A DNA stretch of 52,579 nt from a virus (lineage: Duplodnaviria > Caudoviricetes): positions 1 to 52,579 of IMG/VR virus record IMGVR_UViG_3300030329_003894, one strand, 5' to 3'. Below, piece after piece: positions 2,683-30,306 of this stretch (its first letter is position 1; every line of letters starts with the position of its first letter). The notes below the pieces were generated by a model that saw only the letters and a program-made list of their open reading frames with translations, did not search any database and was not told where the DNA came from. A program made the position numbers and the translations under genes.

Positions 2683-2920
2683 GTAGTTGAGGGTAATACT
2701 GAAAGGTTGTTAGCTGTTATATTTATGATATAAGAGAAGACTTCTGAGTAGGATATTACCCGCTTCTACGATAACAATTAAATGGGTAAATAGTACAATT
2801 AGCTATTGAAATATATAGAAAATTATTAAATGAGCGACTCTAAGTATCAAGACAGCTTCCGTCAAAGGTTAAGCCAATATACTTTCAGTCTAAAATGCTC
2901 AATAAATCTATTTACCCATT
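2683..2920 (+). ncRNA. Two adjacent structured RNA elements (unassigned)
   Basis: GGGTAATA 2691-2698 / TATTACCC 2754-2761; perfect 13-bp stem 2781-2793/2908-2920 with nested stems. Confidence 0.45.
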
Positions 2921-2943
2921 AACATTAAAAAGAGAGGTGTATA

Positions 2944-3240
2944 GTGAAAAAGTCAGATATGTTTTATTCAATATTAGCGGTAGTATTATTAATTGCTATT
3001 GCATATTTATCAGTAAAGGTAGAAATTGTTGAAAAAGTTAGTGAAGTAATCAGATGGGAAGAACCTGATACTTTAAAAGTTGAACCTGATTTAAATCATT
3101 TACCATTTGATGAAACATTTAAATGGTGGAGAACTCAATTAGGCCCGTGTGGTTTATTTGAATGGAATGATGATTTATATATAACTTTATATACAGAAGA
3201 GAATTTTGAAGATTGTATAAGGTTAGTCAGTAATGAATAG
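2944..3240 (+). CDS. Membrane-anchored hypothetical protein
   Basis: GAGGTG RBS, GTG start, N-terminal transmembrane helix. Confidence 0.75.
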   Translation: MKKSDMFYSILAVVLLIAIAYLSVKVEIVEKVSEVIRWEEPDTLKVEPDLNHLPFDETFKWWRTQLGPCGLFEWNDDLYITLYTEENFEDCIRLVSNE

Positions 3241-3373
3241 TTTTATCCCAAGGTGGACAAGAATGCAATTTATACAATGGGCTAAAAAAAGGTGGCCTAA
3301 CACCTCATTCAGTAAAATGCGGAAAAAGCAACTAATCGCAATTTATTGTAATACTAAAAATAGGTTAGACTAA
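3233..3373 (+). CDS. Small basic hypothetical protein (46 aa)
   Basis: MNSFIPRWTRMQFIQWAKKRWPNTSFSKMRKKQLIAIYCNTKNRLD*; overlaps the upstream stop (translational coupling). Confidence 0.6.
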   Translation: MNSFIPRWTRMQFIQWAKKRWPNTSFSKMRKKQLIAIYCNTKNRLD

Positions 3374-3389
3374 ATGAAGTCTATTTATC

Positions 3390-3582
3390 TGTAGTCGGGT
3401 ATTATCCTCCTTACCCAAAAGGATATCATCCGTATTCTTGTCCCGATACTCGACTACAAAACTTTAAACTATGTACCTCATAGTAAATGGTGATGGGATT
3501 CCCATTATAAAGATATTGACAGGCGAGTAACCATACAGGCATTAATTCCCTGTATAAATTCTAACGAGGGTCAAGCCACCAT
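3390..3582 (+). ncRNA. Two structured elements immediately upstream of the Ubl gene
   Basis: 13-bp stem 3390-3402/3446-3458 (one G-U); multibranch ATGGTG 3487 / CACCAT 3582 with nested TTGAC/GTCAA and ATACAGG/CCTGTAT. Confidence 0.45.
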
Positions 3583-3632
3583 AAATATTTAATAGTTAAC
3601 TAATAACAAAAAGAAAGGAGAAATTTGTTCAT

Positions 3633-3917
3633 ATGGCAAATACTTCAAATACTCAAACAACTGAACCAAGACAGTTGCAAATCCACGAAGGTGGTTCTTG
3701 GACAACAAAAACTGTAGTAGTAAATACTATAGGCGAACTAAGGGTAGAATTAGATATCCCTAATGATGTACAAATTAATATTAATGATACTTTGTACTCT
3801 GATAATACATCACCAATGCCATTAAATGGTACTAATGATGATGGAAGTACTCAACCACTATTTGTTGGATGGCAATCTAACAATAAAACAGGAGGTTGTG
3901 CTGTGGTATTATCATAA
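3633..3917 (+). CDS. Ubiquitin-like (beta-grasp) protein precursor
   Basis: 94 aa; beta-beta-helix(TIGELRVEL)-beta(VQININD) pattern; near-terminal KTGG followed by a 6-aa extension CAVVLS; upstream of E2, JAB and E1; AAAGGAG RBS. Confidence 0.75.
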   Translation: MANTSNTQTTEPRQLQIHEGGSWTTKTVVVNTIGELRVELDIPNDVQININDTLYSDNTSPMPLNGTNDDGSTQPLFVGWQSNNKTGGCAVVLS

Positions 3918-3927
3918 ATAAATAAAT

Positions 3928-4000
3928 TAAGGGGGACAATAACTGGTCCTATAAGTCCTATGATAGCCAAGAAGGCAAAGGAATATGTGAGTCCCCCTTA
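3928..4000 (+). promoter_or_regulatory. Structured element between the Ubl and E2-like genes
   Basis: TAAGGGGGAC / GTCCCCCTTA perfect 10-bp stem enclosing small hairpins. Confidence 0.5.
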
Positions 4001-4021
4001 TAATTAGACAGGAGTAAATAA

Positions 4022-5707
4022 ATGAGAGAATATAATTTTATAAATCCTAATATTGATAAATATAGTCAAGCACCTGTTATTATTGATGGTGATACTATTA
4101 GTTTATTAAATTGGGATTATCGAGCATTATATGATGGTAGTTATGAGGTAACACCGCAATTACCATTATTTCCATTAGATTTATTATTAGAAACAGTTAA
4201 TGGTAATGATTTAGCAGATGTCACAGCTTTAGATTTTACTAGAAGATTTAACGATAAGGTAGAACATTTTGCTAAATATTATGGTAAATACATGACAGAA
4301 ATAACAGGTAGTGATTATGTATTTGAAACAACTAAAAACTTTAATTGGAAAAGAGGTATATATGATGTTTTAAGAGCTTATGCTAATGAAGTATGTGGCT
4401 TTAATAAGAAAAATTCTGGTATTGACACATTTTTTAATAGAATAAGTCAAGGCAGATATACACTTAATAATATTCATACTCAACTTTCTCGAATTGAAGA
4501 TTTGAAAAGAGAATGTAAAAGAAGAGTTGGTAGTGTTGTAGAAAATGCAGATGAAGTTGTTGAAGGATTTAAACAACAATTGAATAATATTAAAGAAAAT
4601 ACTGCTTTAGCTCTTAGTATGACTTCTAAATTTCAAATATATCATGGCATTAATCTAACTGACCTTAATCCTAATCCTCCATTTGATGGATTCTTAGACC
4701 TTACAGTTTATACTATAGTTATAGTTGAACCTAATAATATGAATCTAATTAAATCAAATGGTGTCAATTTAGGTGTAGTACCTGTGCCTAAAGCATATCT
4801 TGTATTTAAAAGACCTTTAACTAAAGTTTTATTAAATAATGTTAAAGGTAGTGATATACGATTTAAAGCATCTGTTGCAGGTAGTAAGCATCCATACATT
4901 TCAACTACAACATTTAACAATTTAGACATACATTCAACTCGAAATGACAATACAGTAGGTCCAAGTTTTGTACCATGGTCATCTTCATTATGTTTATCGG
5001 CTTTTGCTGATAATATATTAAATGCATTGCAAAGGAATGATTATGTGCAATTTGTAATGAGTTTAAATGCATGGAACAATACTTATAATGTAGAAACAAC
5101 TAATCCTCATAATCCACCAGCTTCAGTTTTTTATCTTAATGGATTACCTAAAGATATTGATGAAGACCAAATACAAACATATAAATCATATACTGATTTT
5201 AATGAGGAAAGATGTTGGGATGCACAAATAAGTAATCATGGGCTTGCTGAAGATATCGATGAGTTGACAGGATATTTAAGGGATGAAAGTAATTTAAATT
5301 ATTATGAATATGGGGATTATGTAGTTACTTCATGCAATAAAAGACAATGTCCATTGCGAGAAAGATGTATTAAATTCAATAAATATCAAGAATTTCTTGA
5401 AATTGAAGATATAATAGAAAAAATAGAATCTATAGTTGGTTATGTCATTGGTGAAAAATTACAAGATGTAGATTTTAAAAATTATTATAGTGAATTTGAT
5501 GCATATAATGAATTTGCTTATAACTTTAAACATCATTTTAATTCTTATATTATGAATAACAGTTCTATGTACTCTCAATTATTAGATTGGAAATATTGGG
5601 ATAAAGTAGAACAGAATGATGAATTTATAGAAGCATGTCAAAATGCGGATACTAAAGATTTGGCTAGAGCAGTTCAAGCTTGGACACAATCAATTAACTC
5701 ACAATAA
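4022..5707 (+). CDS. Multidomain protein with a putative prokaryotic E2 (conjugating) domain
   Basis: HPYI (H290) followed by SLCLS (C324), resembling the E2 HPN...xCL signature; C438/C443/C449 cluster; lies between Ubl and JAB. Confidence 0.55.
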   Translation: MREYNFINPNIDKYSQAPVIIDGDTISLLNWDYRALYDGSYEVTPQLPLFPLDLLLETVNGNDLADVTALDFTRRFNDKVEHFAKYYGKYMTEITGSDYVFETTKNFNWKRGIYDVLRAYANEVCGFNKKNSGIDTFFNRISQGRYTLNNIHTQLSRIEDLKRECKRRVGSVVENADEVVEGFKQQLNNIKENTALALSMTSKFQIYHGINLTDLNPNPPFDGFLDLTVYTIVIVEPNNMNLIKSNGVNLGVVPVPKAYLVFKRPLTKVLLNNVKGSDIRFKASVAGSKHPYISTTTFNNLDIHSTRNDNTVGPSFVPWSSSLCLSAFADNILNALQRNDYVQFVMSLNAWNNTYNVETTNPHNPPASVFYLNGLPKDIDEDQIQTYKSYTDFNEERCWDAQISNHGLAEDIDELTGYLRDESNLNYYEYGDYVVTSCNKRQCPLRERCIKFNKYQEFLEIEDIIEKIESIVGYVIGEKLQDVDFKNYYSEFDAYNEFAYNFKHHFNSYIMNNSSMYSQLLDWKYWDKVEQNDEFIEACQNADTKDLARAVQAWTQSINSQ

Positions 5708-5719
5708 AGGAGGCCTTAA

Positions 5720-6718
5720 ATGGCAGAAGCAAAAGAATCAAAGAGAAGATTTATAATCTCTGAGAAAGATTGGAATACTATGCAACAATATGCCAGAATA
5801 TCTTATGATAAAGATAAAAACGAGATATCTGGTATTACTTGTTTGAAAAAAGTAACTCATCCAACATCAGGTGAATCAGTATGGCAATTATTTGACCCAG
5901 TTATTCTTAAACAAGAGAATACAGGAACAACTACTGAATTAGATGGTGATGCATTAAGAGATTTTTATATTAAAGCTGGCATGAAATATGGCAAAGATAT
6001 AAGATTCTGTTGGTGGCATTCTCATCATACTATGAATGCATTTTGGAGTGGAACTGATATTAATGAAATTAAAGAATGGAAAAATGATTCTTGGTCATTA
6101 GCATTAGTAATTAACCTATTTCATGAATATAAATTAAATGTTCATGTTTGGGACCCAATAGAATATAGTGAAGATGTTAGACTTGAAGTTCTAAGAAATG
6201 TTCCTAAAGCTACAGCAAAACAGCTTAAAGAATATGATGAACTATGTGATAGTCCAGCACAAATACAAACTATTGGAACACCTCAGCCATGGTATCGTAA
6301 TAATAATATAAATCAAGCAAATATATGGGACCATGCAAGGAAACTATCTAATCAGGTAGCTAAACCCTTAGACCCATTAGCTAGCGATGATAAATTATTA
6401 TGGGCTACACATGATAATGCTCTTCATTACTCTGAATTAATTGATTTTGTTATTGAAGAAATCAATGATATGATGACAGAATATGCCTTAGGCAAGAAAG
6501 ATTATAAGGAATATACTGAATTTGTTAAAATAGTTAATGACAGATTAAAAGTGCGAGATGCAAGAATGAAAATAAAGAAAATTGCTAAGGGTAAGTTACT
6601 TGAAGCAACAGGAACTATGGAAGCTGAAGACCATATTATTTTCAATGATGATACGACTAAAGAAATATATAGTCAAGCACAAATACAATCAGGAGGGTGG
6701 CATTATTATGGGCATTAA
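5720..6718 (+). CDS. JAB/JAMM (MPN+) metallopeptidase with a C-terminal extension
   Basis: E35 plus an exact H-x-H-x7-S-x2-D motif (HSHHTMNAFWSGTD, H100-D113). Confidence 0.92.
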   Translation: MAEAKESKRRFIISEKDWNTMQQYARISYDKDKNEISGITCLKKVTHPTSGESVWQLFDPVILKQENTGTTTELDGDALRDFYIKAGMKYGKDIRFCWWHSHHTMNAFWSGTDINEIKEWKNDSWSLALVINLFHEYKLNVHVWDPIEYSEDVRLEVLRNVPKATAKQLKEYDELCDSPAQIQTIGTPQPWYRNNNINQANIWDHARKLSNQVAKPLDPLASDDKLLWATHDNALHYSELIDFVIEEINDMMTEYALGKKDYKEYTEFVKIVNDRLKVRDARMKIKKIAKGKLLEATGTMEAEDHIIFNDDTTKEIYSQAQIQSGGWHYYGH

Positions 6719-7376
6719 TATGAGAAGTGAAGGTTTAATCAATAACCTTAATGAATTTACTTTCCATATATTAGGCTGTGGGGCTATTGGTAGTTCCGCA
6801 GCCAATCAATTAGTAAGAGCTGGTGCAACCAATTTCTTATTATATGATATGGATATTGTAAATACAGAAAACTTAGGTGTATCTCAATATTTGGATGAAC
6901 ATATTGGTAAACCTAAGGTAGAAGCTTTAAGTAATTATTTACAATCTATTAATGATGAAGTTGATATTATATGTTTTCATGAAAAATATGATATGTTTAG
7001 ATATCAACATAATCAAGATATAGTTATTTTAGGCTTTGATAGCATGGAATCAAGAAAAGAAGCTGTGCTAGATATTTGTCGCGATAAAATGCAAAAGCCA
7101 TTTATGTTAATAGATGGCAGAATGGGTGGAGAACATTACCAACAATATGTATTTACTGATGTAACATTGCCTAAATACATGAAAACTTGGTATAGTGATG
7201 AAGATGGAGACCCAGAACCATGTAATATTAAAGCGACAACATATTGTTCGAATATGGCAGGAGCATTTATAGTTAATGCAATAAGAAAGGTCTTAACACA
7301 GAGTCCTTACGAGAGGGAATTGTCATTTAATTTTCCTCATATGACACTGCAAAAAAAGACTTGTTTCCAAGCCTGA
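6708..7376 (+). CDS. E1/ThiF-family adenylyltransferase (Ubl-activating enzyme)
   Basis: GCGAIGS, DMDIVNTENL, IGKPKVEAL, GFDS, DGRMG; candidate catalytic Cys in EPC; start moved to ATG 6708 behind AGGAGG. Confidence 0.92.
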   Translation: MGINMRSEGLINNLNEFTFHILGCGAIGSSAANQLVRAGATNFLLYDMDIVNTENLGVSQYLDEHIGKPKVEALSNYLQSINDEVDIICFHEKYDMFRYQHNQDIVILGFDSMESRKEAVLDICRDKMQKPFMLIDGRMGGEHYQQYVFTDVTLPKYMKTWYSDEDGDPEPCNIKATTYCSNMAGAFIVNAIRKVLTQSPYERELSFNFPHMTLQKKTCFQA

Positions 7377-7389
7377 CATATAGTAAATT
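7361..7389 (+). promoter_or_regulatory. Putative sigma70-like promoter of the replication module
   Basis: TTGTTT-N17-TAAATT. Confidence 0.45.
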
Positions 7390-7424
7390 GATAGTCCCTT
7401 AGCAGCCTTTGTTAAGGGATTATC
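7390..7424 (+). terminator. Hairpin closing the ubiquitin-like operon (terminator or processing site)
   Basis: GATAGTCCCTTAGCA / TGTTAAGGGATTATC 15-bp stem with two G-U pairs; no strong U tract. Confidence 0.5.
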
Positions 7425-7450
7425 GTTATCACAAATAAGGAAAATAAGCA

Positions 7451-8122
7451 ATGGCACTAAAGAAAGTAAAGAGGAAAGTTGTCTCTACTAATCCTAGTAC
7501 ACTTCTATTATATGGAGCTCCCAAAGTAGGTAAAACTACTATGTTATCTGTCTTAGATGATTGTTTAATCATTGATACAGAAAAAGGTAGCCGTATGATT
7601 GAAGGATACATACAAGAGGTTAATAGTAGAGAAGAACTTATTAATACTCTTATAGAGATAAAAGAAAGTAAAGATGTAAGCTATAAATATATTGCTATAG
7701 ATACTATAGATAAAGTAGCTGAATGGGCTGAAAGACAAGTATGCAAAGAAGAAGGTGTTGCAGCAATTGGAGATTTAGCATTTGGCAAAGGTTATGGTAT
7801 GGTTAGAGAGAAAGTATCTAGAACACTATCAGCTTTTAAAGAAGTAGCAGAGCATCTTATTATAATTGGACATAGAAAAGTAGCATATGCAGTAACAGAA
7901 GGTAATCCAATAGTTATACCTGAATCAATTGATTTGACAGGTAAGCTTAAGAATGTAATTATGGCTGGCTGTGATGCAATTGGATATGTCTATCGTAACG
8001 AAGATGAATTAATGGTTTCATTTAAAGCAAATGATGCTATTGAAGCAGGAAGTAGATGTCCTCATCTTAAAGGTAAAGAAGTTAAATTCGAATGGAAGAA
8101 TATATATAAGGAGAATAAATAA
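7451..8122 (+). CDS. Sak4-like (AAA_24) P-loop ATPase / single-strand annealing protein
   Basis: Walker A GAPKVGKT, IIDTEKG, Walker B IAIDT, GKGYG, CDAIGY. Confidence 0.85.
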   Translation: MALKKVKRKVVSTNPSTLLLYGAPKVGKTTMLSVLDDCLIIDTEKGSRMIEGYIQEVNSREELINTLIEIKESKDVSYKYIAIDTIDKVAEWAERQVCKEEGVAAIGDLAFGKGYGMVREKVSRTLSAFKEVAEHLIIIGHRKVAYAVTEGNPIVIPESIDLTGKLKNVIMAGCDAIGYVYRNEDELMVSFKANDAIEAGSRCPHLKGKEVKFEWKNIYKENK

Positions 8123-8706
8123 TGGCAATTTTCAAGCCTGAAGCTAAAAGCACTCCTTCTGGATTCTTAGGACCTATTGAAGTAGGTATTATAGGATTTA
8201 CAGATAGAAGTGGAGAATATGATTGGTCAGATATTTTTATTGAAGTAGAATTATCTGTTAAAAATAGTGAATACTCTAACAAAATGTCCATACTAGGTCG
8301 ATTAGATAAGGATGCTAATGGTGATATAGTAGGCGGTTCAGTTTTAAATAGAATGTACAAATTCTTTGAAGCTATAGGATGTAATGCTGGGCTAAATGTT
8401 AAGGGTAAATGGGAAGATGAGCACGGTAATGAAATAGAAAACATTGGTGATTATCTTAATCAAAGATTTACCACAAAAGGTGAAGAATATCAAGCTTACG
8501 CTTATAAGAAAAAGCCAAAGCCTGGTAAGAAAGTTTATACAGAAATTTATCCAAGATTATATCCTCTTGGAGAATCAGCTACTAAGCAATTATTAGATGA
8601 TGTTAAGTGGCTTAAAGGTAAAGGTGTTATCAAAGAAGCAGATGCAAGTGATATGCCACAACAATCTGATACACCTTTAGCAGATAATGCATTAAACAAT
8701 CTATGA
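8122..8706 (+). CDS. Probable ssDNA-binding protein
   Basis: Lies between Sak4 and primase-helicase; beta-rich core with an acidic, flexible tail; call rests on context. Confidence 0.5.
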   Translation: MAIFKPEAKSTPSGFLGPIEVGIIGFTDRSGEYDWSDIFIEVELSVKNSEYSNKMSILGRLDKDANGDIVGGSVLNRMYKFFEAIGCNAGLNVKGKWEDEHGNEIENIGDYLNQRFTTKGEEYQAYAYKKKPKPGKKVYTEIYPRLYPLGESATKQLLDDVKWLKGKGVIKEADASDMPQQSDTPLADNALNNL

Positions 8707-10469
8707 TATATGTAGAGATAGCAGTAGACTCTCCTAGAAATAGGGGTATATTGGTATTAAAGTCTGACCTTGCTAGGTATATACCTAAAGATGGGAAAGC
8801 TTTATATCGCTCTGTTTATCTTTATAATGAAGAAGCAAAGCAATTTGCTGATTCTAAAGGCTCTTTAAAAGGCTATCATGGAGAACGTGGAATTGACAAT
8901 GTCCTCATAGATATAGACAGAAAAGATAATTCAGATGAGTATACACTAAAGAAACTTAGAGAAACTCTATTACACTTAAATGTACTTGAAGTTGCTGATG
9001 AAAGCATTCAATGTTATTTTAGTGGAACTGGATATCATATCGTCATAACTAATGAAGTATTCAACTTCCAACCTTCTGATAGCCTGCCTTACCAAGTAAA
9101 GCAAACAATGTCTAGCTTGTTTGAAAACATTGATACTAGTATTTATATGAGAAGCGGAATATATAGAGTAGCACATACAAAGAATCAGAAAACTGGTCTT
9201 TACAAAATACCTATAACTCTATTTGAAGCTAATAATGCTAATATTGATGAAATACATGATTTTGCATCTGACCCTAGATTAGAATATCCATATGCACTAT
9301 TAAGTGGAGATAATGAACTAGAAGGTTATTTATGCCTAGAAACTCCAAAAATAGCCCAATTTGGGAAAGTTATGGAGCCAACGAAGGTAGTACCATGTGT
9401 TCAAACAATGTTGCGAAATGGGCCACAAGAGGGCTCTAGACATAATACTGCTCTTAGAATAGCAAGTCATTTTAAAAGGCACGGCATACCTAGTGAATAT
9501 GCAAAAGTAGCCTTATTACATTGGAATAATAATACTTTAAATGAACAGCAGATGATAGAAAAGACAGAATCTGTATACAATGGAAACTATAATTATGGAT
9601 GCCAAGATGTATTAATGAAAAAGTATTGTCAAACTAAATGTATGTATTTTAAAAACAAGGATTATCACATAAATGTGAAGGATTCTGATGAACTGCAAAA
9701 AGACTTTGAAGAGAGATTAACAACTAATTTCAAAGGCAGAACTATTCCATTGGCAGAAATGTTTGGCTTAGATAAATATGATACACAAATATATCCAGGA
9801 GAGTTAGTTACAATATTTGGGCCAACAGGTTCAAATAAAACAACACTTGCTCAAAATTTGGCATTAGGAGTTGATTTTAAAAACGATAAAATTAATCCAA
9901 CATGGCAAATTCCAACATTGTTTTTGTCCTTAGAATTATCAGCATGGTATATGCACAGAAGACATCTTCAAATAGTTTCGGGGTTATCAAAAGAAGAAGT
10001 TAATGAAGATTATAAAGAAATCTATAATAAACATGCAGATGAATTAAGGCATTTACAAATACAAACAATATCACCAACTTTAAATTCTATTCAAGATAAA
10101 ATAAAACAATTAAATCCATCAGTAGTAATAGTGGATTATATTGATTTAGTAGAAACTCCAAGAGATGTTAAAGGAGAATACGAACAAATTAAGTTTGTTT
10201 CTCATAGTCTGTCAAATCTTGCAGTTAATCTTGATGTAATAATAATTCAAATATCTCAGGTAAGTAGAGAATACAGTAGAAATGATATATTAGATTTATA
10301 TGCTGGAAAGGGCTCAGGAGCCATAGAAAATGCTTCGCGAAAAGTGATAGGATTAAATGGACAAGCTAACACAAATGTAAAGCATATACATATGTACAAA
10401 AATACTGATGGAGAATTATTTGATGTTGAAGTAGAATGGCGTGATAGTTTTAGATTGAGGAGAGTATAA
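8703..10469 (+). CDS. AEP primase-polymerase fused to an SF4 (DnaB-like) helicase
   Basis: DID and FSGTGYH (AEP); EGSRHNTALRIA (PriCT-like); Cys cluster; GPTGSNKT, IVDYID, SQVSR, GSGAIEN (SF4). Confidence 0.88.
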   Translation: MIYVEIAVDSPRNRGILVLKSDLARYIPKDGKALYRSVYLYNEEAKQFADSKGSLKGYHGERGIDNVLIDIDRKDNSDEYTLKKLRETLLHLNVLEVADESIQCYFSGTGYHIVITNEVFNFQPSDSLPYQVKQTMSSLFENIDTSIYMRSGIYRVAHTKNQKTGLYKIPITLFEANNANIDEIHDFASDPRLEYPYALLSGDNELEGYLCLETPKIAQFGKVMEPTKVVPCVQTMLRNGPQEGSRHNTALRIASHFKRHGIPSEYAKVALLHWNNNTLNEQQMIEKTESVYNGNYNYGCQDVLMKKYCQTKCMYFKNKDYHINVKDSDELQKDFEERLTTNFKGRTIPLAEMFGLDKYDTQIYPGELVTIFGPTGSNKTTLAQNLALGVDFKNDKINPTWQIPTLFLSLELSAWYMHRRHLQIVSGLSKEEVNEDYKEIYNKHADELRHLQIQTISPTLNSIQDKIKQLNPSVVIVDYIDLVETPRDVKGEYEQIKFVSHSLSNLAVNLDVIIIQISQVSREYSRNDILDLYAGKGSGAIENASRKVIGLNGQANTNVKHIHMYKNTDGELFDVEVEWRDSFRLRRV

Positions 10470-15098: not shown

Positions 15099-16483
15099 TT
15101 CATTAATCCTTTAAATAATAATGATGGGTTTTTTCTTAAACTCATAGCCTTTGCTGCTATTTGAGCTAATCTACCTAATTTATCTTTTCTAATATCTGTT
15201 AATTTTGGAGAAGCTGGTTCTGGTCCATAAATTCTAGCAGTTTTTGATGCTGCTTGCGTTATTCTAGATTTCTTTGGAGATATGTCATACTCTTTTCTAG
15301 GCTTAGTCTCTGGTCTACGAGTTTTAAAGGTCCAATCAGCTCTATTTAAAACTGGTTGTGCAAACAACCTTTCTACACCTTTTGTAATCTTACCCGTACC
15401 TAAGTCATGAACATCTCTCATACCACCTCGTATTGGAAGATATGTACCGCCTTTTCCATTTTTATTAGGAATCCAAGCAAAATCCATGTATTGCCAATGT
15501 TGCCCAGCAACATATTCTAAAGCTTTAGACCATCCCATTCTGTTAATTGGAACAAATCCTAATCTAAAGGTCCTAGTAACAGTACCATCCTTCAATCGAT
15601 GCCTAAGGCCTTCTCCAGGTTTTATTTCAGTTAATTTCATATCACCTACAACTTCACCTCTGGGATTAACTGGCAACGATAATCCATTAATTACTTGCCT
15701 TGGGAATTTTCTAACTTCTGTACCATAATCATATTCAGCATTCATTATAGCTTTTTTAACATTAGATATTGCATTTCTACTACCGCTTGCAAATACTTTT
15801 TTAATACGACTTATTCTAGGGTCATTTTTTGCTTTATTTTTAAAATCATCTTGCTGCTCTTCTCCATGTATTAATGTCTCAATTTCTCTCCCAACATATG
15901 GTTTCATAGATGCATCTATCCTTGCCATTTGCGGCTCTACAATAGTTTTTACTCTTACATCACCCTTGCCCATTGGAATCATTGAAGGGTCCTTGCCAAC
16001 AGCAACTTTAGTATTGCCAACTAGTAATCTTCTTTTTTTCAACGTATTTTCTGCATTTTTTAAATCCTGCTCTTTTTGGATTCGTTCTCTTTCAGTGAAA
16101 ATTCCAAATTTATCATCTTTTCTTAATTCTTTTTTCTGGTCTTTAATTCTAGATTCCATAGCTTTCAATTCTAAAGATTCTCCAGTAACTAAACTATGCC
16201 CCAATTGATACATCCCACCTCTTACACTATAACCACCAGCTTGTAATGCATTATGTAATGCTTGAGATATCTTACCACCCTTAGCATATTGTTTAATAGG
16301 GCTACGAACTCCATATCCTTGAGTATCAACAACAGAAGATAATAGAGATTGTGCACCTTTTCCAAGGGCATAGCCACCTAAAGCAGCTCCCCCAGCTGTA
16401 TATGCAGCATACTTCCCAAAATTTTGGGCAGAATTTAACTCCTCATCTGAGGGGGTCATCGCTTCTATTAATTCATCTGCCAT
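15095..16483 (-). CDS. Basic protein, probable internal virion/ejected protein
   Basis: Follows the giant virion protein; N-terminal Gly/Ala hydrophobic segment. Confidence 0.5.
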   Translation of the reverse strand: MADELIEAMTPSDEELNSAQNFGKYAAYTAGGAALGGYALGKGAQSLLSSVVDTQGYGVRSPIKQYAKGGKISQALHNALQAGGYSVRGGMYQLGHSLVTGESLELKAMESRIKDQKKELRKDDKFGIFTERERIQKEQDLKNAENTLKKRRLLVGNTKVAVGKDPSMIPMGKGDVRVKTIVEPQMARIDASMKPYVGREIETLIHGEEQQDDFKNKAKNDPRISRIKKVFASGSRNAISNVKKAIMNAEYDYGTEVRKFPRQVINGLSLPVNPRGEVVGDMKLTEIKPGEGLRHRLKDGTVTRTFRLGFVPINRMGWSKALEYVAGQHWQYMDFAWIPNKNGKGGTYLPIRGGMRDVHDLGTGKITKGVERLFAQPVLNRADWTFKTRRPETKPRKEYDISPKKSRITQAASKTARIYGPEPASPKLTDIRKDKLGRLAQIAAKAMSLRKNPSLLFKGLMK

Positions 16484-19400
16484 TAATAAAATTCTCCAGG
16501 TGTAGGCACTTTTCTTTCAGGTCCTTCTCTAAGGTCTTTAGATGCCTTTGTTAAACCGATTGCAGGAACTCCTGTCCATTTATCAATAATTCCTAATGGA
16601 TTTTCTATAATATTATTAGGTCCATGCAAATCTCTAATTATTCTTCCAAATGGGAACATTGTATATACATAATAGTTAGAAACACGCTCCCAATCGTCCT
16701 CTAATATAGCTCTCATAGAAGAAATAGGCAATCTTAAAATAGGAGGAGTAACTGTCTGTAATGGAGCTAATGCTCTAGGCCATTGTCCAAAGAAAGCTCT
16801 ATTACGCTCTTTCTCATCTCCGAATATCCAATCAGCGGTATCTTGAACCCAATTCCAAGGAGCTGGCATAGCAGTTTCAAATAAGGAATAAGCAAAAGCA
16901 TTACCTAAAGCAAATACAAATAAGTCCATTTGCATTATTCTAGCAGCTCTTTTAGCTTCCTCTCCTTTAAAACCATATATTCTAGCTTGTCGTAAAGCTT
17001 CTTTTCTAAATCTAACAGCATTCCATCCCCATAATTGGAAACGAGTCATTACTTTACCTAATGCAGTCCTAGCAAACATAGGTCTATATGGAGCAGAATA
17101 TAAAAACTGTGTAGCTTTAACACCTTTCTTAGCTAATTCAATAAGAATAGGATGGTCAAAATCTTTAATAGCTCCACCAAATTTATTATACCAATGTAAA
17201 TAATGTGCCATAAAAGCATCTCTTCTTAATGCTCTCTCAGGGACAGACATAAATTTAGCTGCTAATTCTGCAACAGGCTTAGTTATTTCTCTTTTCTTAG
17301 CTAAGTCAAGTACAGATTCTTGTGATAACTCAGGGTCCTTTGAAAGCTTTCTAGCTACATCTTGAATAAATTGCTTATTCTTACTTGTTTGATACTCTTT
17401 AGCTAATCCATACTCAGCCATTAAATATTCTGGCAATACTCCATGTTTAACAACAAATTCATCGATTGCTTGCAAAGAGTTCCATTTAGGATTAATAGCT
17501 GATAATTTTTTAGGATTTCTTGCTGTTAGCCAGGTATTAAAACCTACTGATTGAATAGTATGCATAGTACCACCAAAGATATTATTAACCACCGATTTAG
17601 GATGTGCTAATAATGATGCTAATTCAAACTTAGCTTCTAAATTACTCCAGTTCCTTATCTGGAATAAATCTATTCCTCTTAAATTCTCTGGTAGGTCTTT
17701 CTTAATTAATCCAAGCTTTTCGCCTATTTTATTAACTCTATTTTTAACTCTATTGTCAGCCCACCAAGCATATGGAGTACCTTTCATCTTCATCTTAGGG
17801 TCATTTAATACTTGCTCAGGAACAACATCAGGATTACCCATAGCTCCTTGCACATATAATTTCAAAAATGTAGACCAAGCTTCAGTTTGCTCTTTCCCCA
17901 TCTTTTTAAACATAGTACTATTAAAATCATTAATTGTATTTCTTCCAAATATCTGTGACATTTGTCTGAAGTAATTGCCTACTAATCCCTTGACATAATT
18001 ATTAGCTACTTGTCTATCTAGGGAATAGCCTGGCATATGAGCATTTCTAGAGAAAAGTGGACCAGCCTTCTTTAAACTTCTAAACCAATTAATACTTTCT
18101 TGTTTTTCTTGTTTTTTGGCAGATATGTTAGTTAATACTTCAAAATGTTTCCATTCATCTAAATCCTGAAAATTCCATTCACCTGTTAATGCATGATGTC
18201 TATAGGTTAAGCTTGTTAATATCTCTTCCATTTGAGCTTTAGGTAGCTCAGCCTTATTTAAAAAATCAGTATATCTTTTTAATGATTCTAATGCTGTTTT
18301 TCTATCAAAATGCATATGAGGCCAATATCTTTCAAAATCTATTGGTTCTGTTGCCCTAGTTTCAGATTGCATTAATTCTTTTTTTACTTTAGGGTCTTTA
18401 GTCATTTCAATCATCATTGATTTAGCAACTTTTCTTATCCCATCTACACCAAATTCCAATGGAAACCCTTTGCCTGCTTCATAACTTTTCTTTAGATGTC
18501 TGACAAATGCAACATGGTCTATTCTAGGACTTGTTTGTGCTTTGTCATACCATCCTATTCTAAATGGTTCTAATGATGCTTGTATAACTCCCTTAGGTTT
18601 ACCAGTGACTTTATTAATAGGCACATCACCAGCTATAACTTCTGTGAACATTTTTCTAAAGAAATTGGTATATGCATCATTAATAACTTTAATAACTTCT
18701 TCACCCCTCATTCTTTTTTGCTCACCTTTAATATTAACAGTATATATCTTATCCTTAATAGATTTGTCATAATCATATTTCTTTAAGACATTTTGATATA
18801 GCTCATTATATGTTTGAGAGTCGGCATAATTAATAGCAGATTCTTTATCTTGCCTAGACAAAAGGTATTTAGTGTTGGGGTGTTCTCTAATTGCTACTGC
18901 AATCTCGTGAAGTGCATCTGCCCCTTTAATATTATCTAAAAACAATAACTCTTCACCTAATTTCTTTTCATATTCTTCGCCTTTACCAATAGCAGCATCA
19001 TTAGCTCTACCAATCCAATGAGTTAATTCATCCATATACTGTGTTGGTTTAACTACCTTACCTTTTTTAAATATACCTTCAGGGGTCAAAAACATACCTT
19101 CTTTTTGCATTAGAACAATTTCATCTTTCATTAATTCTCTATTAATTGTTTCAGGGAATTGCAAATAATGTCTTTGTGATAATTTAGTAATTTTACCACT
19201 TTTAAGTCTTTGCCATAAAGTTCCTCTTTTAATATCATCAAACCAATTACTCATTGCCATCCAATCAGCTTTATTCATTAAACTTATATCTTTCTCAAGT
19301 AATCCCCTCACTAATAAATGGAAATTTTCAGTAACTTTATTATTTTCTGTCTTTAAATGAGTTAGGATATTATCAATAGCGGCTTTAGTTTCCTTAGATA

Positions 19401-22400
19401 CTTCTACCTTTTTCTTAGGTTTTTTAACACTTTCCCAACCAGAGGTAGAAGTTAAGAATTTATCCATATCTCCAGTAAAGTATTCAGGTAGTCCTTGTTC
19501 TATATTCTCTTGTTTTTGTGGCTCTTCTACAAGTCTTTGTCCTAATTTCCTAACATCTTCAGGGGCTCTTTGTTTAGAAATCTCTGTATAAACATCGCCC
19601 ATTTCTTTTAAAAATTCTATTCTACTATCTCTATTGACAGATTGACTATTATAACCTAGCCTAGATAATGAAGTTTTAGATGCTTCCTGCCTCATAGAGC
19701 TTATCCATCTATAAGCTACTTCATCTAAGGGTATCTTCTTTTTATTAATAAGAGCTTCAAAATTCTGTATTGCTTTTAAATCACCACGATTTAATGAACC
19801 TAACATAAGAACATCAATTAAATCTTGTTGATTCTTAGTATTGTATGTATTCTTTTTAACCTTTGCAATCTTGGCATCTATAGTAGCTTGGTCCATTACA
19901 GCAGTAGTTGGCTCAGTACTTTTAACCTCCCAACTAAATCCAGGTGATTTTAATCCATGTTTTTTTAAGAATGCTGCAATATCCAACCCCTGGTCACCTA
20001 CAGATTCTTGTAAGTCAGGGTCATTTCTTAATCTTCTTTTACTCATTAAATAACTATTTCTTTTCCAACTATCTACAGCTGCAACAATTCTTTTAATATT
20101 CTTTCGCTCATTAGCATCCATTTTATCAATGATTTCTCTAACTTTTTTAACGGTAACTAATGTAGTTAAATCTTTCATAAGAAATGCACTAGCTTTATCT
20201 CTTATATCTCTTAAAACTTGTATTCTTTCATTTTTCCAATTAAAATTCTTAAGAGTTTTAAAAGCACCTCGTTTAGTTTTAACTTTAAATTCTCTCTGAG
20301 TTTTTCTTAATAATTCTGGTGTATGCTGAATAGTAGTATTATGTATAACTTGTTTAAATAAATTATTATCACTAGCAACAATATCTAAATCAGTATTATT
20401 TAATAGCGATAATCTTCTTTTATTTTTCCCTGAGCCTGTTGTACCTGCATTTAATGTCACATCCATATAATGGTGATAGTCCATTTTAAAAGACTTTCTG
20501 TCTAATAATTCAAGCAAATCATCGTATTTATTAACAGACTCTTTGTAGTTTCTATATAAAGCTTCTACCTTGTCTACATCTACTCTTTTCAAAGGACCAT
20601 CTGAATAGTCTAATTCATGTAACATCCTAGCAATTTTTGGAGTTACTGTATTAATATCAGCTTCATTTTCAAACATTAATTTAGAAGTCATTTCATGTCG
20701 TTCTTCCATTGTAAAATTACGATTCTTTAAATAATCTCTACCATAATAAGCTGAATTTGCTTTTTCCATCATACCAAAAATACCTTGTTGCTTTAACTGG
20801 TATATATCATTATTATTAAATTTATCAATGAACTCATTTGGATTCTTAACCTCTTTTCCATTTTTAGTTACTGAATCTACATTAAAATGAGCTTTATACA
20901 TTTGTTTCCACCATTCTGCATAATTTTTCATCCCAGGATAGTCCATAGGGTCAGAAGAAAGTCCTACCATAGCCCTAGTAAGCTTACGTATATAATCTTT
21001 CTCTTTTGGGCTTGTTTTAGGCGAAATTTTAACATCGTATACATCTTCTATCCATTTTCCTTTAACTTTTTTATTAGTTTTAAAGCTAAAAGTATCAGAA
21101 CCTCTATCTACTAATACATTATAAACAGATGCCATTATTTGTTTAGGACTAATTGCTGCACCACTAAGTAAGTTTCTACCATCTGTAGCTGCATGAGACA
21201 TCTCCATTCTAGTATTAGGAGCATAAGCTGCAGATATATCATCTATATCATATTTTCTTGTATCTGGTTTTAAAAGACTCTTAATTATTTCTTTATCTTT
21301 ATTTTCAGTAATAATAATATTTCCATCTTTATCCTTCTCGTAATATTCTTCTTTATTAGCCTCATAAGCATCTTTCCAAGTCTTTTTAAAGCCACCTTTA
21401 CCACCCATGTATACATAAGCCGCATCACCATCAAGGTCAGCACCACCTAAGGCTTTCATAGCTCTAGAATGCAATAAAATCCCATGACCTTTTCTACCTG
21501 TAAAACCTGCAAATTCTAATATATGAGTGCCTGAGATAGAGTCCATTGGAACTCTCATTACAGCAGACCTAAATACTTCTTTTAATTCAGCCTTAGCTAC
21601 AGCGTCTTTTGTTCTTAGATACATTTCATACAGCTCTCCTAAAGACCTATTACCAAAAGATTCTGTCTCTACTCTCATTTGGCGATAAGCTTCATCTAAA
21701 AAGAAAAGCTTATCATTAGTATCTAATTCTTTTAATCGAGGGTTGACACCATCCATATCTTCTCTTAAATATCTATCATATGGTCTCATTCTAGCAGATA
21801 TAGAATTATTAATTTTTGGCTTTGTAGCTTTATTAATTACCCAACTAGACAGAACTTTCATTCTATAGTCATTAACAAAATTATGGACAAAGATAGCCAT
21901 TTGATTTTCTGGCCTATTGCTTAGTTTAGCAGCCACTCTACCATCTTGAATCATTTGACTACTAAGAGAATTAAACTCTTCTAATTCTTTAATTTCTGCT
22001 TTATATGTTTCAATATCCATATCACCATTTTCAAATTCTTCAGCAAGGGAATCTTTTCTTTTCTCTAACATAATTTCATATGCTTTACGAGCAAATAATT
22101 GATTGCCTTCAAGTTTCATAGAAGCAACTATTCTACCTAAACCCATATTTTCCCAATCTAATTTCTCTAATTCTCTCATTAATTCTTTGTCAGATGCTGT
22201 AGGTAGTTTATCTTCATATGCCCTTAATGCATCATTTGCCTTTTTAGTGCCCTTGTATTTAGGTTCTAACATAGTATCAAAGATATCATTGACTATATCA
22301 TTCATATGTATACCATCTTTAGTTTTAGGTGCAAATGCTAGTGATTCTACTAAACTATTTAATAATTGCTTTTTAAGGGATTGTTTTTGTAACATTTCAG

Positions 22401-25400
22401 GACCTTGTCTAACACTATAATTAAACTTTATAGCACTAGGGTCTAATTCATAAATAGCATTAGGATTCTCTGTAATCAAATCCCTAGTACCTCTTTGCTT
22501 AGCTGCTGTTTCTTGTATGATAAAATGTGTATCAGCTAATCTCATATCTTCACTTTGTTTTTTACCCGCAGCATGCATCATATACTTACCTAATAAAGCA
22601 CCATGCTTAGCATCAGGGGCAATGATAAATGATTTATTTTGCCCAGAAACAGGATGACCAGCATCCTTATTTAAAGCATCTATTACATCATCTCTTACTA
22701 TAATAGCACCATCCATCATTTCTTCCATCTCAGTATTCTTTAAATTAGCAAGTTTTTGATTTTTAAGCTTTTTACCAGGCTCTACATCTACATCATTATC
22801 CATAACAAAATTAAAATTACCATTTTTTGTTAAACCTAATTTTCGTTTAGTTGTAGGGTCTACATAGTTTTGATAAAATTCTTTATCACCACCATAAGAA
22901 TCTGTCATCCATATTTGACTTCTTTTATTCCAATTCTTTACATTGTTAATAAATCCTTTTCCTAACATCATCTTCATATTAGCATCATTAAATTCTAATC
23001 CATTTTTAGCTAAATTCCATAAGACATTTGATTTAAAAGCCTTATCAAAGTAATCTTTTGCTTGTTGCTTAGTCATAAAATTATCACCTGCAGCAAATTT
23101 CTTACTAAACTTTTCAACAAAATCATCTCTTAATTTATCAATTTTATATCTTCTAAATCTTTTAGTTATCTGATTATAAGAATGTTTATCTACATCAGGA
23201 TGCCATCTCATAAATATAAGCTTATCATTATCTCCTTTTCCCCCGAAATAATAAAAGCCACCATTTTCTTCTTTCCCCCAATGCTTTAAACTTCTAGATA
23301 ATAATTCATTAAAAGCTTTTTCTCCATATTTTTGAGAACCTCTAAATCTAGAAGGAGTTAATTCTCTATGTCTACCATTAAATCCTTCTACTACTATATT
23401 ATCTAAAACAGCAAAAGCCCTCTCATCCTTACCTGTTAAAGCACGCCAGATATCATCTACTAGTTTCATTGGTTCAAGAGTTCTTTTTACATTACCTGCT
23501 AAATTACTTTGATAAGTTTCATCCATCATAGTAATTTGCTTACCATCAGAGGTAAATTGAATTAATTTTCTGTCATTATTTCTACGACTAATCCATTGAC
23601 GAGCGAAGTTTTCAGCCTCATCTCTTTGCTCTTTATTATATTCTTTACTTTTAGGATTTAATTCTTTTATATCAAATTCTTTAATTATTTCTTTTAAAAA
23701 CTCTTGAGACCTATTAACTTTAGAGCCTGGATTATGATACTTAGGAAAGATTTCAGCAATCCTATCCATATCTTGTATCATTTTAGATTCTTTAATTGGA
23801 CCAACTAACCCCTTATAAGAACCTATATTTTTCATATATTTCTTAACAAATTTAAATGGATTAGTGCCTATTTCTTTTTCAGATGTAGGTATACTACCTG
23901 TATCAGCATCTTCAACATTCTTTAAGCCACTATCATCTTTTTCTGTTTGTTTACCTTGTGCAATGGCCTCTTTAGATAATTGCTCGGGAAAATGTTGTTC
24001 AAATAATTCAGCAAATGCTTTTTTAGATTCATTTTTATTAGTAGCATCTGCAATAAATCCCATAGCCCTAGGAGGAGTCTCTGGATTTCTAGGAGCAAAA
24101 CCCTTAGCTGATGGTATATATCTATGCCATTGATTTTTTACATGCTCATATACATATACTGGCTTATTCATATTAATAGCCATTTGAGCAGCCCAGCCTG
24201 GAGCACCTTCTAATTGTTTATTAGTTTCTATTACTCTACCATCTTTTAATGTCATCTTCCTAAATTCGCCAGATAAGTATAAAGCATCTGCATTTTTAAC
24301 TACAAAATAATTCTTTCTGACCATATCTAGATTATCTCCAGTAGGTGTTTTGCCTAGCATATTACCAGCTCTAGTAATCTCTACATTAGCTTCTGCTAAT
24401 TCTTCTGGCTTCAATCCATGGGCTACACCAGGAAAGACTTTCTTTTTCATTTTAGCAGCTTCAGGCCTAGTAACCATATGTATATTAGCTATCTTATCTC
24501 TTCTTTTATGACCTTCTCTAGCAATAAATGATTCCACTCCACTTTGTCCAGAAGTAATAACAAAATGTTCAAATCCTGCTAATGCACCAGGTTTAAGCTT
24601 TATTTTTTTACCATCTGCTCCTGCTACTTGATAGTATTCACCAATATTATCAAGCATTTTAGCTGCTTTTTTAACATCTACTCCAGTAGCTTTTGCAAAG
24701 TCTAATACAGCTTGAGTATTCTCATCCATAGTTCCCCATCTAGACTTAAACATTTCTTTAGTAACAGATTGAACTTCTGGAGGTAGTTTTTTAAATTCAG
24801 GATGAAATTCAGGGTCTCTCATAACTAGAAGCTCTGCATTATCCTTAGCATCCTTTTCATATCTTTGCATAAATTTTTGAGCCTTAGCATATGTCCAAGG
24901 TCTCTCATTCCCACCAAACCACGCCCCCATAACATATTGATATACTTGCTCAGGAGTAGTAGCTCCTTGCATTGTACTAGGTAATCCCATAAATAATGAA
25001 CCAGCTAATGTTTTAGCAACCTTATTCCCTGCTTCATCACCCACATTAATAAAATTTCCAATACTTCTAAATACACCACCTGCCATACCGCCATGGGCAA
25101 ATGCAGACATCATTTCATCTACACCCCCTTGCCAAGAGGATACTGCCGAAGCTGTACCTAAATGGAATGCTCCTTCAGCTATATGCCTAGCTCTATTCCC
25201 AAGAATAAAGTCAGATGCTGTCTTTACAGCTGAATTTTTAGCTAATCTGCCTTGATTTAAAAAGGGTTTTACTGACTTCTTAGCAAAATCAGTTGCTACT
25301 TTGGCAGCAGCCATAGGAACGGATTTATCATTAAGACTTCTAGCTAATTTAGCTGCAGATACTAATGATTGTGCTTTAGTTAATTTAGCAGCTCCCATAA

Positions 25401-28980: not shown

Positions 28981-30306
28981 TTATTCTCCTGTTACTATTG
29001 TTGCTGGTAAAGCAGTTGCTTTTAAAATTATTGGTGGATAATGCGACCCTGTTGTTCTGTTTCTACCATGTGATATATAGGTACTAGAGCCACTGGCTAA
29101 TCCTGCTAAATAATATGTAGTATCTGTTCCAGCAGTAAGCCCAGTTACAGTAAATTTTATAGTACTAATACTATGGTCAGTTTCATCTATATATACAACT
29201 TGGTCAGCATCATATGTATGTTTTTCATCTAATTCTGCATAAGATGTTCCAGTTGATAATGAAAATTTAGCACCTTTAGATACACCTGTCATCCAAAAAG
29301 AGCATTCTATTTCTACATTACCACTTGGAGGTACTTTAAATTGTATAGATAAATCAGTTCCTTGTGCAGTTTGCATAACAGTCATAGAGCTAGAATTAAT
29401 TGTAATAGTAGCATGTCCTACAGTAGTACTGTCATTCATTATTTTAGTATATCCAAGCATCATCCCAGCATAAGCACTATTAGCAGCACTAAATTCAGTA
29501 CCTGCTTTCTTTGCTATGAAATTCCCACTATGAGAATCTAATGTTATACTAGCTCCAGAATCAACAACAAAATCATCAGCAATAATTTGGTCTAAACTAG
29601 ATATAGTTAAATCGCCACTAGAATAAGTGACATCAGACAAATCATTTAAGGCAGATACACTACTAGTACCTGCACCAATATCACTTCTAACTTCTGATGC
29701 GGAGCGACTTTCTAATCCATTTGCTGTAAAGCGAGCATATTCATCATCAGCAACTGAATTACTATCTATCTTAACTGCATTAGTATCAGCGATTCCAAAT
29801 GTTAAAGTTTCTTGACCTCCAATATATGTTAAAAGATTAACTCCCGTAACATATTTAACTTCTCCATTATCTGACATTAATATTTTATCAGTGTCAGAGC
29901 TTATTTCGCTTAAACTTCCAATGGTTAATTTAGAATATGTACTTAAATTACCTAACTTATCGTATAGTAATGCCTCATTTTTAATAGGTTTATTTCTATT
30001 GCTACGTAGGCCCTTAGATGGCTTATTCCCTTTGCTTAAAGGCACTAAATTGGCGTTTAAATCAACCTGATAGCCCATAGGTGTTTTAACAGCCAATAAA
30101 AATTCACCTTTATAATTTCTAGCAAGCATAGTAGAACCAACTGGACTCTCTCTTTTTCTAATAGGACTTTGTTTAGCTTCTAAATCAGGCTGCAAATCAT
30201 CTAATCTGTCATATATTTCTTTTAAAGCCTTATCAGTTATAGGTTCTCCAACTAGAGTTCTGAGAACTTTTGCTTTTGTCATTGTTCTTGGAGAATGTCG
30301 AGGCAT
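28981..30306 (-). CDS. Tail fibre/spike-like protein
   Basis: S/T/G-rich; ALNDLSDV fibre-type repeat; beta-rich C-terminal domain. Confidence 0.6.
   Translation of the reverse strand: MPRHSPRTMTKAKVLRTLVGEPITDKALKEIYDRLDDLQPDLEAKQSPIRKRESPVGSTMLARNYKGEFLLAVKTPMGYQVDLNANLVPLSKGNKPSKGLRSNRNKPIKNEALLYDKLGNLSTYSKLTIGSLSEISSDTDKILMSDNGEVKYVTGVNLLTYIGGQETLTFGIADTNAVKIDSNSVADDEYARFTANGLESRSASEVRSDIGAGTSSVSALNDLSDVTYSSGDLTISSLDQIIADDFVVDSGASITLDSHSGNFIAKKAGTEFSAANSAYAGMMLGYTKIMNDSTTVGHATITINSSSMTVMQTAQGTDLSIQFKVPPSGNVEIECSFWMTGVSKGAKFSLSTGTSYAELDEKHTYDADQVVYIDETDHSISTIKFTVTGLTAGTDTTYYLAGLASGSSTYISHGRNRTTGSHYPPIILKATALPATIVTGE

Follow-up and report, generated by a model that had tools for sequence, protein, structure and literature searches.

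A conserved four-gene phage cassette that may encode a self-contained ubiquitin-like conjugation cascade

A four-gene unit in a complete phage genome

We analyzed a 52,579-bp stretch of viral DNA, the whole of the IMG/VR record IMGVR_UViG_3300030329_003894 (hereafter the window), and found four co-oriented ORFs on the + strand at positions 3633-7376. The first (Ubl, 3633-3917) encodes a 94-aa protein predicted to be the precursor of a ThiS-type beta-grasp modifier, the second (E2L, 4022-5707) a 561-aa multidomain protein with a UBC-like core, the third (5720-6718) a 332-aa JAB/JAMM metallopeptidase with a JAMM motif, and the fourth (6708-7376; the ORF call runs from 6582) a minimal E1 of 222 aa with a ThiF/MoeB/UBA5-type adenylation domain. 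An earlier note, made from the letters of the sequence, had described this block as a complete Ubl, E2, JAB and E1 set owned by a lytic phage. Profile evidence upheld the Ubl, JAB and E1 parts of that description; the E2 part rests on a motif and on weak fold matches. The attribution to a phage was confirmed, as CheckV estimated the genome to be 100% complete, terminase, portal and capsid genes were present, and no integrase was recognised. We estimate a probability of about 0.6 that the four genes form a phage-encoded, self-contained ubiquitin-like conjugation cascade. The Pfam scan of the window covered 51 ORFs, 10 of them at E ≤ 0.1 and 41 at E ≤ 0.001.

A synteny survey of IMG/VR, which the earlier note had proposed as a check, was carried out with three sub-family profiles and yielded 98 loci. 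All four genes were present in 70 of these, always in the order Ubl-E2L-JAB-E1, while in the other 28 the missing genes fall past the contig ends. The conserved order argues for one functional unit. Since the 98 loci belong to one broad phage group, the synteny does not amount to many independent events, but it does show long-term retention through deep divergence. The genes for a Sak4-like ATPase, a 194-aa protein (p194) and a primase-helicase follow the cassette in most loci, with other genes intervening in some lineages. We then compared the median identity to the window copy over 48 loci, which was 23% for E2L, 45% for JAB, 57% for E1, 60% for the primase-helicase and 67% for Sak4. E2L is by far the fastest-evolving part of the cassette, which fits a component that recognises a variable partner. 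Pattern scans of bacterial genomes, built from two family alignments, returned no relative; such scans see only what their patterns describe, so bacterial relatives may still exist.

The ubiquitin-like precursor and the JAMM peptidase

The near-terminal Gly-Gly ascribed to the 94-aa protein was found at G87-G88, followed by CAVVLS. K85, G87 and G88 were invariant in alignments of 22 and of 30 family sequences. The 22 close homologues keep N-N-K-T-G-G, after which their tails diverge wholly in sequence and length, and K-x-G-G was found in 79 out of 79 family ORFs from related phages; 40 of these stop exactly at GG and 39 carry 1-18 residues more. When 30 family members were searched against Pfam, 8 matched ThiS (best E-value 1.1e-5), 3 matched ThiS-like, 2 matched TGS and 2 matched DUF348, all of which are beta-grasp families. 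The ThiS matches came from the shorter members of a family that ranges in size from 65 to 120 aa. The window protein itself gave no direct match in Pfam, PHROGs, PADLOC or NCBIfam, in Pfam because of an insertion of ~20 aa. Profiles of the family found nothing significant among PDB sequences, the nearest being MoaD (E 0.43) and ThiS (E 0.92). Based on the family profile matches and the invariant Gly-Gly end, we predict that the 94-aa protein is a Ubl precursor of the ThiS/MoaD-type beta-grasp class with its mature end at G88. There are two fused metagenomic forms, P0176 and P0177, one running into methyltransferase-like sequence and the other into the E2L N-terminus; we rejected them as probable frameshifts or assembly chimeras and not natural fusions.

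The third protein carries the exact JAMM motif that had been read in it, with E35 and H100-x-H102-x7-S110-x2-D113 (H100-D113 at nt 6017-6058, + strand), the pattern of JAMM/MPN+ metallopeptidases. E35, H100, H102, S110 and D113 were invariant in 19 of 19 diverse JAB sequences. The family profile matched Rpn11 and Rpn11-like chains among the PDB sequences (E 2e-5), and the window protein scored 18.6 bits against Pfam Prok-JAB, under the 25-bit cut-off. In half of the related phages the Ubl is made in its mature form and the JAMM gene is nonetheless retained, which suggests that the enzyme also removes conjugates. The JAMM proteins have a C-terminal extension of ~190 aa ending in a conserved Gly-/aromatic-rich tail, G-G-[WY]-x-Y-G-[YH]. 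This tail may be a docking peptide.

The E2-like protein

The HPxI...xCL signature reported for the 561-aa protein was located at H290-P291-Y292-I293 (H290-P-Y-I, nt 4889-4900, + strand) and C324-L325 (C324, nt 4991-4993, + strand). A word-index search detected 5 homologues of E2L, and an exhaustive profile search detected 156 cluster representatives, of which 57 reached E ≤ 1e-10. Neither C324 nor P362 varied among 102 full-length members, and P291, W351, G374 and a cluster of cysteines, C398/C438/C443/C449 (nt 5213-5368, + strand), were kept in at least 90% of the sequences. H290 and Y292 were invariant in the 17 closest sequences. The family consensus was [HF]-P-[YF]-I-S ... x-V-C-L-D ... 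D-D-I ... W ... [ST]-N-P, which resembles the E2 signature H-P-N-I ... C-L-D-I-L ... W-x-P, and the conserved Cys is preceded by H-P-x, as in the E2 superfamily.

An AlphaFold model of E2L built from the 102-member alignment had a pLDDT of 90.8 and a pTM of 0.85. In the model, an N-terminal beta unit and a long helical hairpin (residues 61-168) precede a central alpha/beta domain (176-374), and the C-terminal domain is helical and contains the four-Cys cluster. The central domain is the predicted UBC-like core (residues ~176-374, nt 4547-5143, + strand). Its elements run in the order helix 176-200, sheet 204-265, HPY at 290, Cys at 324, and helices 326-337 and 341-353, which resembles the UBC order of a helix, an antiparallel sheet, an H-P-N-type turn, the catalytic Cys and helices. 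The structural matches of the core were weak and were exclusively to UBC, UEV and RWD folds. From the model, we infer that Cys324 sits at the E2 catalytic position. The best-conserved block of E2L lies outside the UBC-like core, in the helical hairpin at residues 104-140 (F-N-W-K-[RP]-G-x-Y-D and ...F-F-x-R); W109 and G112 were kept in at least 90% of the sequences. This block may be a second functional site.

E2L is an unannotated family, known from its 156 cluster representatives, with a confident predicted structure. The window protein matched no family in Pfam, PHROGs, PADLOC or NCBIfam, and its sub-region matched none in Pfam at E ≤ 10. An E2L profile run against PDB sequences gave coiled-coil noise only and was discarded, and a search of the ESM Atlas was unhelpful, as the Atlas's own model had a pLDDT of 0.29. 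We weighed a three-part module of Ubl, JAB and E1, in which the 561-aa protein would be a substrate, an adaptor or an unrelated replication-associated co-traveller. That no sequence profile ties E2L to any E2 family, that its fold matches are weak, and that its sequence changes far more quickly than those of the adjacent genes (median identity 23%, as against 57% for E1, in the 48 loci) would all agree with such a module. On the other hand, the Cys is invariant in 102 of 102 members within a conserved H-P-x ... C-L context, the gene lies strictly between those for Ubl and JAB in all loci spanning it, and the structural matches of the core are enriched for the UBC-like fold. We consider the three-part module improbable.

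The E1-like enzyme

The fourth gene most likely starts at the ATG at 6708 and not at 6582, since the homologues begin with M-x-I-N-x-R-S. From this start the protein is 222 aa long and its gene overlaps the JAB stop by 11 nt. With the start so corrected, the description of a ThiF/E1 enzyme with a free Cys was found to be right. The protein matched Pfam ThiF with an E-value of 5.7e-22 (78.5 bits, above the 28.1-bit cut-off; residues 52-257 of the 264-aa ORF) and contains a GCGAIG nucleotide loop, the Gly-rich loop of a Rossmann-type ATP-binding site. Two cysteines, C172 and C180 (222-aa numbering), were present in at least 97% of 72 sequences and invariant in 16 of 16, in the context P-E-P-C-x-x-K-A-x-x-Y-C-S-N. 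They could not be aligned to known catalytic cysteines because the PDB alignments span residues 12-146 only.

When the family profile was run against the PDB, 36 distinct E1-like sequences were found at E ≤ 1e-5. MccB was the best match (6e-11), followed by UBA5 (4e-10), and UBA6, TcdA, MoeB, ThiF, Cap2, UBA3 and PaaA were also among the matches. The rank of MccB and the presence of PaaA led us to consider a tailoring reaction of the MccB/PaaA kind, in which the E1-like enzyme would adenylate the C-terminus of the small protein to yield a modified peptide or peptidyl-nucleotide. We regard this as very unlikely: MccB is barely above UBA5 and the alignment covers the shared nucleotide-binding half only, the small protein belongs to a beta-grasp family of 65-120 aa with a GG end and is not a short peptide, and the JAMM peptidase and the UBC-like protein would be left unexplained.

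The closest NCBIfam models were those of ThiF, at scores below their cut-offs. The best score was 81.7 bits against a cut-off of 159, the ThiF equivalogs gave 60.6-81.7 bits against cut-offs of 152-275, and the enzyme was also far under the MoeB and PRTRC_ThiF cut-offs. These distances point to a distinct minimal branch of the E1 family. They also bear on a sulfur-carrier reading of the cassette. Thiocarboxylate routes include ThiS/ThiF, MoaD/MoeB and the JAMM-processed carriers CysO (with Mec+) and QbsE (with QbsD), and triads of Ubl, E1 and JAB are known from sulfur pathways. By analogy, E1 would adenylate Ubl, a thiocarboxylate would form, and its sulfur would pass to a nucleotide, DNA, tRNA or a cofactor, with E2L acting as the sulfur-insertion enzyme through Cys324 and the Cys cluster. 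The cassette shares with the ThiS-ThiF, MoaD-MoeB, CysO/Mec+ and QbsE/QbsD systems a ThiS-type, GG-ending beta-grasp protein, a minimal E1 and JAMM trimming after GG. Pfam ThiS was matched by 8 of the 30 Ubl family members, ThiF models were the top NCBIfam matches of an E1 that is a bare adenylation domain as in ThiF and MoeB, the cassette belongs to the genome arm concerned with nucleic-acid metabolism, and the four cysteines of E2L were kept in at least 90% of the sequences. Against this, and as the earlier note had observed for ThiG, MoaE and cysteine synthase, no family of these three, nor of ThiH, rhodanese or cysteine desulfurase, was detected by Pfam among the 51 ORFs, although host enzymes could substitute. 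The score of 81.7 bits lies far under the 159-bit equivalog cut-off, and the structural matches of the E2L core are to UBC, UEV and RWD folds only. Unlike the known sulfur-carrier systems, the cassette sits in a genome in which sulfur donor or acceptor enzymes were not found (51 ORFs), and it always includes a further protein, in which a Cys is invariant and the core is UBC-like. On balance we find a sulfur carrier unlikely.

A proposed conjugation cascade

The analysis shows which genes are present, with their motifs and fold classes, and that their order and sequences are conserved throughout the clade; all chemical steps of the conjugation cascade, and a protein target as such, are inferences. 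The minimal E1 would adenylate Gly88 of Ubl, probably as a homodimer in the manner of ThiF, MoeB and UBA5, and may then carry Ubl on C172 or C180. Ubl would next be transferred as a thioester to Cys324 in the UBC-like core of E2L and finally be joined to a lysine of the target. The additional domains of E2L, namely the N-terminal beta unit, the helical hairpin and the four-Cys helical C-terminal domain, could form a built-in substrate adaptor, making the protein an E2/E3 hybrid. The JAMM peptidase would trim the variable tail after GG and probably also reverse conjugation.

Several observations weigh against a conjugation cascade. The gap from H-P-x to the Cys is ~27-34 residues in E2L and is much shorter in canonical E2s. 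A Foldseek search of the E2L model against the PDB gave no match at E ≤ 0.001. Moreover, UBC, Prok-E2 and UQ_con were absent among the 25 most frequent of the 103 Pfam families that 91 E2L members matched at E ≤ 1. The catalytic position of Cys324 was deduced from the order of elements only. The AlphaFold model of the window Ubl, made from a shallow alignment, was unreliable (pLDDT 53). A ThiS-like Ubl and ThiF models as the best NCBIfam matches of E1 fit a sulfur carrier as well.

From the fixed position of the cassette beside the genes for Sak4, p194 and the primase-helicase, our best guess is that its target is a protein of replication or recombination, encoded by either phage or host. A fixed core module in such surroundings suggests an ordinary function in the phage cycle more than accessory counter-defence; we would say that the former fits at least as well. 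A wider hypothesis can be framed, in which tagging by Ubl is of ancient origin and belongs to the essential core functions of several large lytic tailed-phage lineages (the marine podovirus-like clade, crAss-like gut phages and Flavobacterium phages). The fast-evolving E2/E3 hybrid would directly tag a phage or host replication or recombination protein and so control the switch to phage DNA synthesis, as a viral counterpart of the ubiquitin/SUMO control of replication in eukaryotes and a mirror image of Bil defence. We offer this wider hypothesis tentatively and consider it possible but doubtful.

Comparison with known systems

In prokaryotes, conjugation of ubiquitin-like proteins has so far been established as a bacterial defence against phages (Bil, CBASS type II and Bub), whereas the cassette described here is owned by a virus and is fixed across a whole phage clade, in 98 IMG/VR loci, beside replication genes. 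If conjugation is true, phages would use ubiquitin-like tagging for their own cycle, and a minimal E1 with a giant E2 would be a new architecture in the evolution of the ubiquitin system. Bil was reportedly described by Hor and by Chambers, both in Nature in 2024. PADLOC returned JAB and Cap2 E1 matches only for the cassette proteins.

In the available text of a preprint on Bub, which summarises Bil and Bub as bacterial systems, Bil is an anti-phage operon of BilA (Ubl), BilB (E2), BilC (JAB) and BilD (E1) (PMC11601596). By comparison with that text, the cassette has what are predicted to be the same four functional parts, in an order equal to the letter order of bilA-D; both also have no separate E3, with an E2 proposed to recognise targets directly, and a JAMM peptidase paired with a Gly-ending Ubl (PMC11601596). 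The two systems differ in that the Bil E1, as far as the accessible descriptions go, has a tandem IAD-AAD-CYS architecture while the cassette E1 is a single adenylation domain of 222 aa. They differ further in that the 561-aa E2L is multidomain and has no detectable sequence similarity to any E2, that the Ubl is ThiS-like, and that the cassette is a fixed core phage module and not part of a bacterial defence island.

The earlier note had likened the block to Bil and PRTRC-type sets, and membership in either was not supported, as its E1 consists of one 222-aa domain and PRTRC models either missed the proteins or fell far below their cut-offs. In NCBIfam, where we take TIGR03734-03742 to be the range of the PRTRC models, the test with PRTRC_ThiF (TIGR03736) gave 25.5 bits against a cut-off of 144.75, and no PRTRC model matched Ubl, E2L or JAB at E ≤ 1. 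The PRTRC-associated ParB family was not found by Pfam among the 51 ORFs. The cassette does resemble PRTRC, and the operons predicted by Iyer, Burroughs and Aravind (2006; PMC1779556), in being a set of Ubl, E1-like, E2-like and JAB genes borne on a mobile element with no metabolic partner genes. That article predicted bacterial operons of E1, E2, JAB and Ubl, and for phages its available text gives only the TAPI/TAPK pair (PMC1779556). TAPI (Ubl) and TAPK (JAB with NlpC/P60) of lambda and T1 are like the cassette in combining a phage beta-grasp protein that has a conserved Gly end with a JAB domain, but in that account they have no E1 or E2 and lie in the tail-assembly cluster, whereas the cassette lies in the replication arm with an E1 and an E2-like protein (PMC1779556). 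The cassette was also distinguished from the Cap2/Cap3 pair of CBASS type II, in which a fused E1-E2 protein accompanies a CD-NTase and an effector; the PADLOC Cap2 models cover only the E1 part (ORF residues 45-160), E1 and E2L are separate genes, and no CD-NTase family was found in the scanned window ORFs.

Relatives of the E1 with 29-33% identity were found in 76 GenBank phage records, nearly all from crAss-like or Flavobacterium FpV4-like phages. Analogous sets were located in crAss001 (Gp79-Gp78-Gp77-Gp76, positions 2714-7124 of locus stretch L102), cr111_1 (2761-6636 of L100) and FpV4 (2610-6621 of L099), where annotation goes no further than hypothetical proteins, 'metalloprotease domain' and 'ThiF'. 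The sets of crAss001, cr111_1, DAC15/17 and FpV4-like phages show the same four-gene order within a replication module that also encodes primase, Sak4 and UDG, and their JAMM domain is related to that of the cassette (hhalign probability 81%). Their Ubl domain differs in ending with K-S-G-[GA] and in being fused to a C-terminal extension of ~130-200 aa; the Ubl profile aligned weakly with the 289-aa protein of FpV4 (hhalign E 0.13), end to end up to K-S-G-G. The middle protein of these sets is shorter (~420-444 aa) and the E1 of crAss001 is longer (383 aa). The E2L profile gave no significant hit to the 427-aa protein of cr111_1 (hhalign E 0.46). In a search of BFVD with the E2L model, six members of its own family were followed by cr128_1, a 'CrAss-like virus', two 'Podoviridae sp.' and one unnamed 420-aa entry at probabilities of 0.90-0.99, those of the cr128_1 and CrAss-like proteins (373-435 aa) and the unnamed entry being 0.95-0.99. 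We conclude that the crAss/FpV4 cassette is analogous and probably homologous, the homology of the second gene not being proven. The nearest analogous cassettes are those of Bacteroidota phages.

As analogous cassettes occur in cultured crAss001, DAC15/17 and FpV4-like phages, the question is open to experiment. If conjugation is true, a function could also be given to four genes, so far 'hypothetical', of the phages that are most abundant in the human gut. A literature search on phages or crAss with ThiF, JAB or ubiquitin, which covered sources other than subscription papers and supplements, found no description of such a phage cassette. In the part of a 2026 preprint that was available, a UBA5-like phage protein family is named in passing.

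Hairpins in the spacers

A hairpin had been noted as closing the block, and we found it in the spacer between E1 and Sak4 at 7389-7425 on the + strand (-21.6 kcal/mol, z -4.55; none of 200 shuffles folded as well). It is conserved in the relatives. In 45 of 48 distinct E1-Sak4 spacers the z score was ≤ -2, and compensatory changes were seen in 11 of 13 pairs, covariation that supports the stem. The hairpin (spacer 7377-7450; equivalents in loci L001-L062) is flanked by the conserved words TTGATAG / GTAAATTGATAG and TTATCGTTATC. No U-run follows it and it was not listed by a terminator scan; because of the missing U-run it is not a canonical intrinsic terminator. It may serve as a terminator, a processing site or an operator; a regulatory or processing function at this point could set the cassette apart from Sak4. 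The spacer between Ubl and E2L contains a second, long hairpin at 3928-4000 on the + strand (-24.9 kcal/mol, z -2.6), and 38 of 53 distinct Ubl-E2L spacers of relatives had z ≤ -2. Shine-Dalgarno-like sequences precede the starts of Ubl (AAAGGAG, within 3610-3632) and E2L (CAGGAG, within 4005-4021).

Genomic setting and neighbouring genes

The sequence was present in DNA sequencing runs labelled marine metagenome, and no RNA run was among the runs listed as containing it. No close cultured phage was found, the large terminase (TerL), the capsid protein and the primase-helicase each having less than 30% identity to GenBank phages. A blastn search of the DNA and a tblastn search of E2L against an annotated phage collection gave no match. 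The genome has a + strand arm (~1.5-14.8 kb) that carries the cassette, the Sak4-like ATPase, the primase-helicase, an HNH endonuclease and a PD-(D/E)XK exonuclease, and a - strand arm that carries the large terminase, a P22-type portal, an SU10-type capsid protein and two giant ORFs. The giant ORFs, of 3076 aa (16483-25713, - strand) and 2582 aa (30306-38054, - strand), matched neither Pfam nor PHROGs at the thresholds applied. Scans of the window recognised no integrase, DNA polymerase or tRNA; the genome is rated complete and has a primase-helicase, Sak4 and an exonuclease, yet no DNA polymerase was recognisable in it.

Downstream of the cassette, and without implied membership in it, lie the genes for the Sak4-like ATPase (7451-8122, + strand) and the primase-helicase (8703-10469, + strand), both identified by family matches, with p194 (8122-8706, + strand) between them. 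The 194-aa protein has no family match, and its acidic ...A-L-x-N-L C-terminal tail was kept in 56 distinct relatives. Its position and tail suggest an SSB-like protein. The termini of the Ubl, JAB, E1, Sak4 and p194 proteins showed no clamp-docking motif; in E2L, 14 regex matches were rejected since they lie within a conserved internal Q-W helix rather than at a terminus. Upstream of the Ubl gene, at 2944-3240 on the + strand, is the gene for a small, putatively membrane-anchored protein that bears a conserved W-W-R-x-Q-L-G-P-C-G motif, and such a protein was found upstream of Ubl in about half of the related loci (48 ORFs).

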